Virus record (IMG/VR): IMGVR_UViG_3300028569_000019
Span: 32,780 to 96,779 of that record
DNA length: 64,000 bases
Source of the DNA: a virus
Strand: one strand, 5' to 3'
The notes beneath the pieces are model-generated. The model was not told the origin of the DNA, ran no database searches, and was given only the letters and a program-made list of their open reading frames with translations. Shown one piece after another: positions 22,607-27,726 of the stretch. The position numbers were made by a program, and so were the translations under genes. How positions within the stretch are numbered: position 1 is the stretch's first letter; each line of letters starts with the position of its first letter.

Positions 22607-23569
22607 ATGTCCTTTACCGATACCATTTATTTAGAAAAATTTGGCAAATTAACTATCAATATTTCAGATGATGGAATATTTCAAACTATAAACGACGGCT
22701 CTATTAATTGTGAATTCTTAATAACACTAAGAAGTTTGGATTCTAATCTGATTTCAAACGTAATGTATCACCACTGCACAGTTGGATATGATCTATGGAC
22801 ATATAATAACCCTATATATTACATTCAAAATATTGTAAAAAAAATTCATCCTGGTTTTTCTATAGAAATACACGATGTAATTACAAATGATCTTTTGTTT
22901 AGTAAAAATTATCACAGTGCCAAAAAGTTTAGATGTTTAGATTTGAAATCTAAAGATGGAGATGTTACATATCCATCGTATCATACGTTTTTTTATGATG
23001 ATCATTTTCTAGATAATTTTAACATAAAAGACGGAGATGTTGTTTATGATATGGGAGCTAATATAGGAGCATTCTCAATTGCATGTTCAAACTATAATGT
23101 TAAAAAAATATATGCATTTGAGCCACATCCAGAAATATTTGACCACTTAAGCTATAACTTGGACAGATATGGAAAAAATGCAACATCATTTAATAATGCA
23201 ATTGCAGGAACGTTTTCAAAAGTAAAATTTGGTACCAAAGAAACTACCGTTGGATCTAGCATCAGTGACAATGGAACGTTCGAAGTTGATACTATTAATT
23301 TAGAAAAGTTTGTATCTTCTAATAATTTGGAATTGCCAACCTATCTTAAAATCGACATTGAGGGTGCCGAATATGATTTTTTTGAAAATACCAGTGATGA
23401 TTTCTTTAAAAACGTTCGTAGTATATTTTTTGAATTTCACCATAATAACGGCTCAAATGTTTCGAAAATAATTGATAGATTTAAAAATTTAGGATACACG
23501 TTGAGTCACAAAGAAAATGCTTTAGATCATAATCTATCCCATATGAATACCATCTATCTCAATAAGTAA
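22607..23569 (+). CDS. FkbM-family SAM methyltransferase
   Basis: YDMGANIGAFS, YAFEP and LKIDIEGAE motifs. Confidence 0.9.
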   Translation: MSFTDTIYLEKFGKLTINISDDGIFQTINDGSINCEFLITLRSLDSNLISNVMYHHCTVGYDLWTYNNPIYYIQNIVKKIHPGFSIEIHDVITNDLLFSKNYHSAKKFRCLDLKSKDGDVTYPSYHTFFYDDHFLDNFNIKDGDVVYDMGANIGAFSIACSNYNVKKIYAFEPHPEIFDHLSYNLDRYGKNATSFNNAIAGTFSKVKFGTKETTVGSSISDNGTFEVDTINLEKFVSSNNLELPTYLKIDIEGAEYDFFENTSDDFFKNVRSIFFEFHHNNGSNVSKIIDRFKNLGYTLSHKENALDHNLSHMNTIYLNK

Positions 23570-23572
23570 ATT

Positions 23573-25585: not shown

Positions 25586-27726
25586 AAATTATACAAGTTA
25601 ATCTGGGGTTATTGCCTATTCCACCTAATGGATGGGGAGCAATTGAAAAAATTATTTGGGATTATTATCAATTATTAAATAATAAGGGATTGGAATGTCA
25701 GATAAAATATCTCAATGAAATTCAATATGCAGATGACGTAATTGTACACGTTCACGTAGCAAATCTTGCCAACGAGTGTCATAAACGTGGCATACCATAT
25801 ATATTCAGTTTACACGATCATCACGCTTACTTGTATGGTAAAAACTCCGTTGTTTATAAAGAGAATCTAGAAGCAATTGAGAACAGTGTAATATCAACTT
25901 GTCCGGCCAAATATTTAGTTGATTATTTTGGTAGTAAGAAACTGCGTTACTTTTCGCATGCGGTTAATACAACTGTATTCAAATGTAGAAATAATAAAAA
26001 TCCAGTAAATAAATTGTTATGTGTTGCAAATAATGGATATGCCAATGACAAGTCCTATGATAGAAAAGGATTTACATATGCAATCAAAGCTGCTAAAGAA
26101 TTAGGATATCCAATCACAATCGCTGGTCCGTCGAATAATAAAAAATTCTTTGATACGTTGGATGCTGAATTAAATCAGTATGATAAACTTACTAAATTAT
26201 TTGATTTAAATGAAGAACAATTAATCGATTTATACAATGACCACTCTATATTTTTACATCCATCTGAATTGGAAGCTGGACATCCAAATTTAACTTTGTT
26301 AGAAGCAATGAGTTGTGGTTTACCTATAGTAGGCACATTTGAAGAAAAATCATATGATGGTATGATTGTTGTCGAACGTAATGTAGAACAAATAAAATCC
26401 GCTATACAAAATATAGTCAGTGACTACGACACATATAAAAATAAAGCACTTCAAACTGCTAATGTAAATTCTTATTTTAATCGTGTAGATCAACTAATCG
26501 ATTTATACGATCAGTATACTGAAAGATTATTTGCTATCCGACATATTAATGTTTATGAAAATATAAAAAAGAATAACAAGAGTATTAAAACAAATGCTGT
26601 ATTTAAGTATTCTTTTAACGATAATGCAAAAATAGAAGTTGATAATCCAATTGATACAGAACAAAGTTTTCACGTTACATTCTATAATAGTGACGATAAT
26701 ACTATTAAATACGAAACAGATTTAAAACACAATTGGTGGGGAAGTTGTAATTTTACATATTACATTCCTTACGAAGTTCATATCAAGGATAATAAGACAA
26801 ATGAATTGGTAGAAACTTATAAATTCAATTTGAAAAATAAGAAGGTATTAGTTGAATATGAAAGTTTTTCTTTGGGAGATCAATTGGCTTGGATGCCTAT
26901 CATTGAACAATTCAGAAAGAAACACGAATGCGATCTTTATGTAAAGTTGCCTTTAAAAAACATTTTTGAAAGCAAATATCCTGAAATTAAGTTTGTTAAC
27001 CATAACAAATATGTATCAGATGCTTTTGCTACTTACAAGTTGGGATTTTATGTTGATGAAAATGGGACAAATAATGATAGATGTAAATCTGATCCTAGAA
27101 AACAACCATTGCAAAAAATAGCAAGCGATTATTTGGGGTTGCCATACGAACCAGAGTTACCTCTAATTGACTTTAAAGTAAAAGAACGTCCACTAAAGAA
27201 ACGATATGTTACTATTGCAACGCAAAGTACGTGTCAAGCAAAGTATTGGAATAATAAAGGTGGGTGGGAAAAAGTAGTGGAATATCTAAAGTCAAAAGAC
27301 TTTGAAGTAATTTGTATCGATAAACATAAAGTATTTGGTAATGGAAAAGATTGTGTCAACAATATGCCATCAAATGCTTTGGATTATACAGGAGATAAAC
27401 CTCTTGAAGATCGTATGAATCAAATATACCACAGTGAATTTTTTATTGGACTGCCATCTGGTTTATCTTGGTTAGCTTGGGCAGTTAAAAAGCCAGTGGT
27501 ATTAATCAGTGGGTTTTCTTATCCATACACCGAATTTGAGACCCCATATAGAGTACAAAATCATTCAGTATGTACAGGATGTTGGAATGATTCGTTATTT
27601 GACAAGGGAGATTGGAAGTGGTGTCCAAAATCAGATAAAAGAGAAGAATTTGAATGTACCAAACAAATAACTCCAAAAATGGTTATTGATGTTATTGATC
27701 AATTATTAATAGAACAAAATATTTAA
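25582..27726 (+). CDS. GT4 glycosyltransferase fused to a TibC/AAH-like protein O-heptosyltransferase
   Basis: PPNGWGAIE and EAGHPNLTLLEAMSCGLP; then SLGDQLAWMP, FIGLPSGLSWLAWAV and four Cys in CTGCWND..WCP..FECTKQI. Confidence 0.85.
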   Translation: MKIIQVNLGLLPIPPNGWGAIEKIIWDYYQLLNNKGLECQIKYLNEIQYADDVIVHVHVANLANECHKRGIPYIFSLHDHHAYLYGKNSVVYKENLEAIENSVISTCPAKYLVDYFGSKKLRYFSHAVNTTVFKCRNNKNPVNKLLCVANNGYANDKSYDRKGFTYAIKAAKELGYPITIAGPSNNKKFFDTLDAELNQYDKLTKLFDLNEEQLIDLYNDHSIFLHPSELEAGHPNLTLLEAMSCGLPIVGTFEEKSYDGMIVVERNVEQIKSAIQNIVSDYDTYKNKALQTANVNSYFNRVDQLIDLYDQYTERLFAIRHINVYENIKKNNKSIKTNAVFKYSFNDNAKIEVDNPIDTEQSFHVTFYNSDDNTIKYETDLKHNWWGSCNFTYYIPYEVHIKDNKTNELVETYKFNLKNKKVLVEYESFSLGDQLAWMPIIEQFRKKHECDLYVKLPLKNIFESKYPEIKFVNHNKYVSDAFATYKLGFYVDENGTNNDRCKSDPRKQPLQKIASDYLGLPYEPELPLIDFKVKERPLKKRYVTIATQSTCQAKYWNNKGGWEKVVEYLKSKDFEVICIDKHKVFGNGKDCVNNMPSNALDYTGDKPLEDRMNQIYHSEFFIGLPSGLSWLAWAVKKPVVLISGFSYPYTEFETPYRVQNHSVCTGCWNDSLFDKGDWKWCPKSDKREEFECTKQITPKMVIDVIDQLLIEQNI

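Follow-up and report, generated by a model that had tools for sequence, protein, structure and literature searches.

To our knowledge, BAHT enzymes, the O-heptosyltransferases of the TibC/AAH type, are known only as partners of the autotransporter adhesins of pathogens. For the TibC-TibA and AAH-AIDA-I systems of E. coli (TIGR04414; PDB 4rap and 4rb4), excerpts of PMC4358343 list TibC residues essential for activity, including the catalytic base Asp-110 and the sugar-binding Thr-226, Lys-230, Arg-286 and Trp-305, and identify Pro-300 as the determinant of ADP-D,D-heptose selectivity. Among phages, mycobacteriophages have virions in which capsid and tail-tube subunits are glycosylated at their C-termini (Freeman et al. 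2023, Cell Host Microbe, as cited in the excerpted text of PMC12619734), and we found no other glycosylation of phage-particle proteins in the literature. Here we describe a giant lake-water phage with three sugar-handling genes at 22607-27726 of the window (the whole 64,000-nucleotide stretch of DNA analysed), one of them close to E. coli TibC. Judging from sequence and gene linkage, these probably form a phage protein O-glycosylation cassette, which most likely acts mainly on the (Gly-Ser/Thr-Ser)n fibre of the phage itself.

The locus shares with the E. coli systems the enzyme domain and its catalytic, sugar-binding, Pro-300 and iron-finger residues, and P0003, like TibC and AAH, would hyperglycosylate Ser residues of a long repeat protein in the cytoplasm. 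In contrast to those systems, it has no autotransporter, and the proposed acceptor is a viral collagen-like Gly-X-Y fibre rather than a beta-helix passenger; the enzyme is also fused to a GT4 domain and accompanied by a further GT4, a methyltransferase and domains of no known function, which point to an extended, methylated glycan and not to single heptoses. As in mycobacteriophages, phage-encoded glycosyltransferases would decorate the phage's own structural proteins, although here the heptosyltransferase is of the BAHT type and would act on a giant repeat fibre.

Three more distant systems share parts of this arrangement. In BclA, from the exosporium of Bacillus anthracis and B. cereus, the Thr residues of a collagen-like Gly-X-Thr repeat bear O-linked oligosaccharides with methylated sugars among their units, and the protein makes up hair-like filaments at the particle surface; its repeats, however, are Pro-rich (GPT), it sits on a spore rather than a virus, and its enzymes are not known to be related to TibC. 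In Gram-positive serine-rich repeat adhesins, the GT4 enzymes GtfA/GtfB and SdgA/SdgB load sugars onto Ser residues of very long low-complexity repeats in surface fibres; we know of no TibC-type enzyme in these systems, and a lineage D phage GT4 scores 27.9 bits with the SdgA model, far below its cut-off of 800. Glycosyltransferase and methyltransferase activities are likewise fused in giant-virus enzymes, for example in chlorovirus A064R, which joins two rhamnosyltransferase domains to a methyltransferase domain. Such enzymes need no host machinery to build methyl-capped glycans on a structural protein in the cytoplasm, but the viruses infect eukaryotes, their capsid glycans are N-linked and the enzymes belong to other families.

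Features of the cassette, its neighbour and the candidate acceptor (window coordinates)
Feature	Coordinates	Strand	Assignment
ORF1 (P0001), 320 aa	22607-23569	+	FkbM-family methyltransferase; presumed O-methylase for a glycan sugar
ORF2 (P0002)	23573-25585	+	GT4 domain plus C-terminal domain X
GT4a, P0002 residues 1 to about 329	23573-24559	+	Pfam PF00534
Domain X, P0002 residues 330-670 (~340 residues)	24560-25585	+	Virus-only; possibly another transferase
ORF3 (P0003)	25582-27726	+	GT4 fused to TibC/AAH-type domain
GT4b, P0003 residues 1 to about 335	25582-26586	+	Pfam PF00534
TibC/AAH-type (BAHT) O-heptosyltransferase domain, P0003 residues 336-714	26587-27726	+	TIGR04414, PDB 4rap
Tail sheath, 1305 aa	27807-31724	+	Pfam PF04984 and PF17482 at residues 1019-1293; cassette neighbour, alternative acceptor candidate
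Fibre N-terminus, first 399 residues	62804-64000	+	3'-open ORF cut by the contig end; proposed acceptor

The three ORFs are tightly packed (gaps of 1-3 bases or a 4-base overlap), and the sheath ORF begins 80 bases 3' of them. An earlier note on this DNA had read the segment as an FkbM methyltransferase, a GT4 and a GT4-TibC fusion with all four Cys just before the sheath gene, and the ORFs together with Pfam, NCBIfam and PDB matches bear this out. P0001 matches PF05050 in Pfam (E 4.8e-18, 66.3 bits, cut-off 22.7), the FkbM family TIGR01444 in NCBIfam (79.8 bits, cut-off 37.7) and the methyltransferase PHROG 8156.

In the C-terminal part of P0003, residues 336-707 match the NCBIfam Aah/TibC O-heptosyltransferase model TIGR04414 at 347.3 bits (cut-off 200; 349.3 bits in a whole-genome profile scan), over profile positions 7-373 of 374. 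A PDB search aligned it to TibC residues 26-386 of structure 4rap (E 6.8e-76); the N-terminal beta-barrel region lies within this alignment, which begins at TibC residue 26, and the TibC_1st model (PF21129) scores 19.1-24 bits in relatives, short of its 27-bit cut-off. The HMMER alignment to 4rap pairs the catalytic Asp (P0003 D433 with TibC D110), the sugar-binding residues (T550, K554, R611 and W630 with T226, K230, R286 and W305), P625 with P300, and the four iron-finger Cys (C664, C667, C681 and C692 with C339, C342, C358 and C370), so that P0003 keeps every residue named as essential in the excerpts of PMC4358343. Across 97 phage TibC domains in 22 clusters, D110, K230, W305 and the four Cys never vary (97/97), whereas the R286 position is Arg in only six of the clusters and the P300 position is Pro solely in the cluster of the studied phage; the sugar donor may therefore differ in relatives.

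Both GT4 domains match PF00534 (cut-off 26.4): GT4a over residues 169-287 (E 3e-12, 46.9 bits), with E265 and E273 nearly invariant or invariant among 25 homologues, and GT4b at E 4.6e-13 and 49.5 bits. GT4a is 39-43% identical to GT4 domains fused straight to TibC in lineage D, and 57-59% identical to those adjoining fibre genes in the complete genomes G034 and G072. Domain X, an addition to the earlier note's description, has no match in Pfam, NCBIfam, PHROG or PDB; by homologue search and ESM Atlas neighbours, it occurs in viral proteins only. The search found 95 homologues, of which 90 had precomputed GT4 families and five had none, and among the Atlas neighbours, which are hypothetical proteins of viruses, the only leads, to GT25 and WavE, are weak. 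Elsewhere in TibC clusters, domain X is a free protein of 326-345 aa or lies inside GT2 or methyltransferase-TibC proteins. GT4, FkbM and other methyltransferase domains accompany TibC in shifting fusions across phages, with FkbM domains fused to GT4 or TibC domains in some relatives; this fits the earlier suggestion that the GT4 enzymes may extend, and FkbM may cap, the glycan.

The candidate acceptor begins near the end of the window. The 62804 ORF is rich in Ser (25.8%), Thr (17.0%) and Gly (22.8%), with unbroken GXY runs that start near residue 128 and reach the contig end, and it matches the Scl2/SclB collagen-like model below cut-off (113 bits versus 325). Its orthologue in the relative G013 (L302:5677-11685, 2002 aa) shares 130 of the first 135 residues and has a 1723-residue GXY core with a single Pro, followed by a C-terminal Peptidase_S74 chaperone domain (PF13884, 43.1 bits versus a cut-off of 22; L302:11233-11682). 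By comparison with this protein, the 62804 ORF is the start of a predicted fibre of roughly 2000 residues. Counting against the fibre as acceptor, its gene is 35 kb from the cassette in the studied phage's own lineage, where the sheath gene comes directly after the cassette, and the acceptor Ser residues known for TibC and AAH belong to beta-helix repeats rather than to collagen-like triplets.

Linkage across phages argues for the fibre. The earlier note had proposed looking for co-occurrence of TibC-like and GTS-repeat genes, and this is what we found: a TibC-family gene above cut-off is present in 24 of 77 viral records picked by a fibre query, a count that, like all those here, rests on related, fragmentary metagenome contigs prone to break within the repeats. 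The proportion rises to 9/10 for contigs of at least 80 kb and 5/5 for records at least 90% complete. Among the 24 records, with one bearing terminal repeats treated as circular, the gap between fibre and TibC genes has a median of about 7 kb and is at most 10 kb in 16 and at most 25 kb in 23. For contigs of at least 60 kb, TibC is found in 10/11 with the fibre and 0/5 without it (Fisher p 0.0014, with the records mutually related).

Searches from the enzyme side agree in most cases. Among TibC-positive records of at least 58 kb, the fibre query matches 22 of 25 (17 strongly, five weakly) and has no match in three; four of the 11 TibC clusters from the TibC-side search had no fibre in the DNA searched, and no S/T collagen run lies within 20 kb of the TibC gene in LR756504. 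Phages of other lineages encode these same enzyme parts 1-25 kb away from giant collagen-like (Gly-Ser/Thr-Ser)n genes. Within lineages C and D, whose TibC domains are 30-40% identical, 13 of 17 loci have long G-X-S/T runs within 10 kb, in proteins of 800 to more than 2800 aa with over 40% Ser. Two complete genomes illustrate the arrangement: in G072 a 5316-aa fibre is followed by GT4a plus X, a 233-aa gene and a GT4b-TibC fusion, and in G034 a 3007-aa fibre is followed by a 242-aa gene, GT4a plus X, GT4b as a separate 318-aa gene, and a stand-alone TibC just 3' of it. The cultured Microcystis phage Mel-JY01 also has both a TibC-type enzyme and the fibre. We found no published account of this pairing.

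Close relatives, selected by capsid protein, bear both on the fibre and on the alternative that the cassette instead, or also, glycosylates other virion proteins, such as the 1305-aa sheath, tail fibres of the Ser-rich 'GSFSGS' type or other fibre proteins at their short collagen tracts. The position of the cassette immediately 5' of the sheath gene in lineages A and B, the several Ser-rich structural proteins encoded in the genome, and a short G-T/S-S tract in the 1162-aa protein 3' of the G013 fibre gene are all consistent with such acceptors, as is the location of mycobacteriophage glycans on capsid and tail tube (PMC12619734, in excerpt). However, G092 (capsid 73% identical), in which the Mre11/Rad50-like gene is directly followed by the sheath gene without a cassette, keeps the sheath (1330 aa, 65% identical) and a homologue, also 65% identical, of the Ser-rich protein encoded at window 5728-7395, and has a non-collagen ORF at the expected fibre site. 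G095 has neither cassette nor fibre and G091 has both; G105, a 36-kb fragment estimated to be 16% complete, is discordant, with a fibre gene at the expected site and no TibC match. In lineages C and D and in the complete genomes, moreover, the enzyme genes lie away from the sheath and beside giant fibres. We therefore regard these other acceptors as unlikely. The earlier note had named both the GTS/GSS fibre and the Ser-rich virion proteins as likely substrates: the fibre is linked to TibC genes by position and by presence and absence, no evidence connects the other Ser-rich proteins to the system, one of them having a homologue in cassette-less G092, and a glycan-coated virion in the wide sense gained no support.

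The enzymes might act on the host cell, by heptosylating the LPS core or modifying surface proteins such as autotransporters, and so block superinfection or alter the surface. Temperate phages do alter O-antigens. Glycosyltransferases of temperate phages modify host serotypes in the excerpted text of PMC12619734, and the TibC family is related to LPS heptosyltransferases, with P0003 matching GT9 PF01075 at residues 534-665. But the LPS heptosyltransferase models (RfaQ, heptosyltransferase I) reach only 20-24 bits, against 347 for the protein-acting BAHT model, and it is a phage structural gene, rather than lysogeny genes, that accompanies the cassette, whose surroundings are the structural and replication genes of a T4-like genome of lytic type; action on the host cell thus seems improbable. 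The earlier statement that no autotransporter is visible was confirmed, with no autotransporter beta domain (PF03797) in the studied record or in four complete TibC-bearing related phage genomes.

Hypermodification of phage DNA through hydroxymethylated bases, as in T4-like phages, is on the evidence of enzyme family and gene linkage more improbable still, and we give it very little weight. The cassette does lie directly 3' of a primase and the Mre11/Rad50-like gene, and in T4 the alpha-glucosyltransferase gene is near genes 46 and 47. DNA glucosylation is also a common role of phage glycosyltransferases (PMC12619734, in excerpt). Yet the TibC-type domain belongs to a family of protein Ser O-heptosyltransferases and has an intact iron finger, close relatives with the same replication genes do not have the cassette, and elsewhere the enzymes adjoin fibre genes.

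Clues to the sugar donor come from lineage D, where a cupin, an adenylyltransferase and a PfkB kinase are encoded between the GT4-TibC fusion and the fibre. The top NCBIfam matches are rfaE domain II for the adenylyltransferase (89.9 bits) and rfaE domain I for the kinase (124 bits), which suggests HldE-like heptose kinase and adenylyltransferase functions; rfaE domain I-like kinases are also found in three of five complete genomes. None of the 14 records searched has gmhA, so heptose supply would depend on the host. Short GXY tracts rich in S/T immediately adjoin the enzyme gene in 13 of 80 bacterial and archaeal TibC loci, for example in a 281-aa signal-peptide protein of Methylobacter.

With the fibre as main acceptor, we infer the following scheme, covering acceptor, sugar, glycan, order of steps and the fibre's place on the virion. 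In the cytoplasm of the infected cell, P0003 would use its TibC-type domain to transfer heptose from ADP-heptose, probably host-derived in the studied lineage, to Ser side chains of the repeat; the fused GT4b, GT4a of P0002 and perhaps domain X would add further sugars, and the FkbM enzyme would then O-methylate the glycan. Aided by its C-terminal S74 chaperone, the fibre would form trimers and be mounted on the virion. A bolder version, which we hold only tentatively and think rather doubtful, is that the glycans are structurally required: O-linked, heptose-based, methyl-capped chains on nearly every Ser/Thr would replace proline/hydroxyproline in stabilising or stiffening a proline-free triple helix of 0.5 to more than 1 micrometre, with the TibC-type enzyme, if it forms the ring-shaped dodecamer of the BAHT family, and its fused GT4 domains threading and processively glycosylating the nascent chain. 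In that case these phages would produce a hitherto unknown 'glyco-collagen' hair. If sugars were needed to build the fibre, this would explain why fibre and enzyme set are gained and lost together.

If the cassette does act on the fibre, then a large, widespread group of aquatic T4-like jumbo phages and some bacteria would use the BAHT family on another kind of acceptor, Ser/Thr-rich collagen-like tracts, and the half-micrometre fibres, to which these genomes devote a considerable part of their coding capacity, would be glycoproteins. Such decoration would matter for how the phages recognise hosts, adhere to particles or mucus, and escape grazers or defences. The fibre would also be a natural example of proline-free collagen that may owe its stability to sugars, and its enzymes would offer a modular set for glycoengineering.

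Family matches and gene order confirm that genes for an FkbM methyltransferase (P0001), a GT4 protein (P0002), and a GT4::TibC/AAH fusion (P0003) lie directly before the sheath gene, as the earlier note had described. The source record, of which the window spans bases 32780-96779, is a 96,779-base linear IMG/VR sequence, estimated to be 29% complete, from a T4-like jumbo phage of low GC content (about 30%) with no close DNA relatives found among deposited phages; its major capsid protein has 50% identity to the capsid of the cultured Microcystis phage Mel-JY01. The cassette genes are spaced by 1-3 bases or overlap by 4 bases, and this tight packing suggests that they form one transcript. 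No promoter for the cassette could be demonstrated by a sigma-70 scan, which was at chance level (94 sites versus 85.8 expected), or by a search for TATAAATA, which occurs 24 times versus 14.4 expected and has no match on the + strand just upstream of the cassette in the motif scan; the sole clear terminator is 3' of the sheath gene. The placement of the cassette after replication genes is the only argument for glycosylation of phage DNA by these enzymes, which we regard as highly improbable.

Coordinates of the cassette and other features in the window
Feature	Position	Strand	Remark
Baseplate and fibre genes, including gp25-like	3340-3741 (gp25-like)	+	start of + strand gene order
Primase-like gene	at 18512	+	after baseplate/fibre genes
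Fused Mre11/Rad50-like gene	19420-22605	+	directly before cassette
P0001	22607-23569	+	
P0002	23573-25585	+	
P0003	25582-27726	+	
Tail sheath, 1305 aa	27807-31724	+	after cassette; terminase pieces next
Terminator	31740-31769		
Major capsid protein	48833-50659		
Collagen-like fibre	62804-64000		first 399 fibre residues; contig ends within repeat

The Mre11/Rad50-like gene codes for a single 1061-aa protein that combines a calcineurin-like phosphoesterase (Mre11-like) with the N-terminus of an SMC/Rad50-like ATPase, whereas genes 46 and 47 are separate in T4. In the sheath, the Pfam sheath domains are confined to residues 1019-1293, leaving ~1000 N-terminal residues without assignment, and the sheath gene has a GC content of about 38%, above that of the flanking DNA.

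P0002 consists of a GT4 (residues 1 to about 329) and a C-terminal domain of about 340 residues, here called X, which has no firm family match in Pfam, NCBIfam, PHROGs, a PDB profile search, or ESM Atlas. ESM Atlas gave weak hints of GT25 and WavE for X, which score below 0.9 and were set aside; domain X is found in viral proteins only, either free or fused. In P0003, another GT4 is joined to a TibC/AAH-type domain, which scores 347.3 bits against TIGR04414 (cut-off 200) and matches TibC in the PDB (4rap) at E 6.8e-76, covering TibC residues 26-386. According to a structural study of TibC, Asp-110 acts as catalytic base, Thr-226, Lys-230, Arg-286, and Trp-305 bind the sugar, Pro-300 determines selectivity for ADP-D,D-heptose, and Cys-339, 342, 358, and 370 form an iron finger that the dodecamer and activity require (PMC4358343). 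When aligned to 4rap, P0003 is identical to TibC at 10/10 of these residues, so that the TibC-like domain with all four Cys reported in the earlier note is borne out. A set of 97 phage TibC domains was grouped at 60% identity into 22 clusters, and none of the domains deviates at Asp-110, Lys-230, Trp-305, or any of the four Cys; Thr-226 is either Thr or Ser; position 286 is Arg in 6 of the 22 clusters, and position 300 is Pro only in the cluster of the window phage, with Ser or Gly elsewhere. From the TIGR04414 and 4rap matches and these conserved residues, P0003 is a BAHT-type enzyme that appears to be active, with ADP-heptose as the predicted donor, a prediction that is safest for the window lineage and less safe for other lineages. 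Modification of host LPS or host proteins is a quite unlikely role, as the domain scores 347 bits with the BAHT model against 20-24 bits with LPS heptosyltransferase models, and the cassette is linked to a structural gene.

Of 8000 database candidates that were scored, 1187 are related to the GT4-TibC fusion at E <= 0.001, and many of these are full-length with 52-100% identity and on contigs of up to 305 kb. At the protein level, only 4 of 50,697 deposited phage records match: a 735-kb phage (two copies), a 636-kb phage, and Mel-JY01. The 72 loci from an IMG/VR scan were sorted into four synteny groups. Group A members (64-100% identical) share the arrangement of the window; group B (about 50-57% identical) has a bigger cluster upstream of the sheath, composed of GT4::FkbM, a second FkbM, a CmcI-like methyltransferase, a GT2, and GT4::TibC; in groups C and D (30-40% identical), GT4::TibC or methyltransferase::TibC stands in different contexts. 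The P0002 GT4 corresponds to the TibC-fused GT4 of group D (39-43% identity). The two halves of P0002 (GT4a and X), the two of P0003 (GT4b and TibC), FkbM, and other methyltransferases thus make up a small set that is shuffled between separate genes and fusions, the pattern expected of enzymes acting on one product.

A 443-aa ORF upstream of the window in the same genome (G000:C1:17826-19157) has 51-55% identity to most of the CmcI/Methyltransf_24-type methyltransferases in group B TibC clusters and 40% to one of them, and may code for an extra glycan-methylating enzyme outside the cassette. In a close relative, G106, two adjoining TibC-family matches over the cut-off (G106:C1:16186-18142) fall in open frames of 712 and 285 aa, which suggests that TibC was duplicated in tandem or that a second copy is split.

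Gene order in groups C and D points to a candidate acceptor, a giant collagen-like fibre of Gly-Ser/Thr-Ser triplets encoded 1-4 genes away from TibC. These proteins have more than 40% Ser and extend to over 2800 aa, some with a fibre chaperone-like C-terminus. Within the 10 kb around TibC, long triplet runs are present in 13 of 17 group C/D loci; the other four are truncated on the relevant side, or are locus L066. In a reverse search, one group C/D-type fibre used as query returned 79 loci, and of the 77 records searchable for TibC, 24 exceed the curated cut-off for a TibC-family match, among them 5/5 records at least 90% complete and 9/10 contigs of at least 80 kb. The gap between fibre and TibC has a median of about 7 kb (<= 10 kb in 16/24 and <= 25 kb in 23/24), and is 6-16 kb in five complete genomes of 164-373 kb. 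The complete genome G072 has the order 5316-aa fibre, GT4a+X (57% and 35% identity to P0002), 233-aa gene, and GT4b::TibC; in G034, also complete, a 3007-aa fibre is followed by a 242-aa gene, GT4a+X, GT4b, and a stand-alone 400-aa TibC, with the sheath side next. Two of three distinct deposited TibC-bearing phages have Ser/Thr collagen-like frames within 6 kb of TibC, and in LR756504 no such frame is present within 20 kb of the gene.

With a strict fibre filter (at least 8 consecutive G-X-S/T triplets), which misses GTN, GTD, and GTA variants, TibC was unassociated in the fibre-selected set (14/45 versus 10/32). A wider filter (at least 10 GXY triplets, S+T >= 40%), adopted after the data had been seen, gave 23/63 versus 1/14 (p 0.05); the one TibC-positive record without a fibre by this filter, L101, has a collagen run below the Ser/Thr threshold. 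Because the filter was altered, we give these counts less weight than the evidence from completeness, gap, and gene order.

The deposited record of Mel-JY01 (PP395634.1) has a + strand frame that is open from 187738 to the record end and from 2 to 3052 (L188:37738-39999 and L186:2-3052), holding more than 500 residues of Ser/Thr-rich GXY repeat, over which the annotation instead places two minus-strand hypothetical genes (1-651 and 739-2298). It thus seems that the gene for a giant collagen-like fibre has been cut in two by the record start point and lacks annotation. The same phage has a GT4-methyltransferase-TibC protein, encoded at 4750-8430.

In the window lineage, the cassette and the fibre gene are 35 kb apart; the fibre gene is the downstream one and is preceded by a T4 gp15-like gene. 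The orthologue in a related virus, G013, is 2002 aa long and shares 130 of its first 135 residues; its GXY core of 1723 residues (40% Ser, 33% Gly, 19% Thr, and a single Pro) is followed by a C-terminal Peptidase_S74 chaperone domain. At the textbook collagen rise per residue, this core would be about 0.49 micrometres long as a triple helix. The fibre query matched 22 of 25 TibC-positive records of at least 58 kb (17 strongly, 5 weakly or at contig ends), with no match in the other 3. A neutral sample of relatives was drawn by capsid protein; of its 80 loci, the 16 tested were the larger contigs without previously known TibC, and TibC was found in 3 and the fibre in 2. The co-occurrence of TibC-like and GTS-repeat genes, which the earlier note named as a check, is seen on contigs of at least 60 kb, where TibC is present in 10/11 with the fibre and 0/5 without it (p 0.0014, for related records that are not independent events). 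In G092 (99 kb, capsid 73% identical), the sheath directly follows the Mre11/Rad50-like gene, so that the entire three-gene cassette is missing, and a 458-aa non-collagen ORF occupies the expected fibre site. G095 (124 kb) has neither cassette nor fibre and G091 has both TibC and fibre; G105, a 36-kb fragment with a fibre gene and no TibC, breaks the pattern, unless its enzyme gene is located past the contig end.

The interpretation in the earlier note gains partial support. It had named both the GTS/GSS fibre and Ser-rich virion proteins as probable O-glycosylation substrates; comparative genomics singles out the fibre. Action of the cassette on the sheath or other Ser-rich virion proteins, instead of or besides the fibre, is unlikely, as G092 retains these proteins without the cassette, and in groups C and D and in complete genomes the enzyme genes do not adjoin the sheath. 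As judged from these genomic patterns, the collagen-like fibre is the likely acceptor of a modification that is itself inferred, as are its sugar and glycan structure.

Several further ORFs relate to the fibre. At about 23.3 kb in G095:C1, directly upstream of the sheath gene, a 132-aa ORF shares 41% identity with the non-repeat domain at the fibre N-terminus and may represent either a remnant or an anchor domain that exists on its own. The gene after the G013 fibre (L302:11695-15183) codes for an 1162-aa protein with about a dozen 'GNVGIGTTSP'-type repeats and a short Gly-Thr/Ser-Ser tract of its own, which scores 28.6 bits with Pfam Collagen, possibly a second acceptor or a fibre partner; the matching region of the window genome is beyond the contig end. 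Contigs often terminate inside Gly-Ser/Thr-Ser repeat genes, as in the window, G091, G105, G108, G116, and G121. Short-read assemblies seem to break in fibre repeats, leaving fibres and neighboring genes under-represented in contig-based counts.

A donor of the ADP-heptose type, supplied in part by some phages, is favored by rfaE-like kinase and adenylyltransferase genes in group D and in complete genomes. The interval from GT4::TibC to the fibre in group D contains three genes. One codes for a cupin; another, for a nucleotidyltransferase of 134 aa, is matched best in NCBIfam by heptose-1-phosphate adenylyltransferase (rfaE domain II) at 89.9 bits; and the last, for a PfkB kinase of 243 aa, has heptose-7-phosphate kinase (rfaE domain I) as its top match at 124 bits, both scores being below cut-off. 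Kinases similar to rfaE domain I are present in 3/5 complete genomes, one scoring 301 bits against a cut-off of 345. Among 14 TibC-bearing records, just two have rfaE domain II-like matches, below cut-off, and gmhA is absent from all 14 (three of them at least 93% complete). We saw no gmhA or rfaE-like genes in the window lineage, whose records are only 27-48% complete, and dropped the proposal that it synthesizes its own ADP-heptose.

Searches of open-access papers and bioRxiv yielded no description of TibC-type enzymes from phages or of such enzymes next to collagen-like fibres. When one genome per prokaryote species was scanned with a profile built from six phage TibC domains, 80 loci were returned, and 13 of these have short Ser/Thr-rich GXY tracts within about 1 kb of TibC, in Methylobacter, Methylococcus, Polaromonas, other beta-proteobacteria, a Binatia MAG, and a Flavobacteriales MAG. 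The complete genome of Methylobacter sp. (NZ_CP197401.1) has a two-gene unit (L324:8950-11134) in which a 281-aa protein that begins like a signal peptide and contains a GTN/GTS tract is encoded just 5' of, and on the same strand as, a stand-alone 432-aa TibC homologue; Polaromonas and other beta-proteobacterial MAGs have comparable pairs. With these 13 loci, some of which may be prophages, the pairing of the enzyme with a Gly-Thr/Ser tract extends beyond phages.
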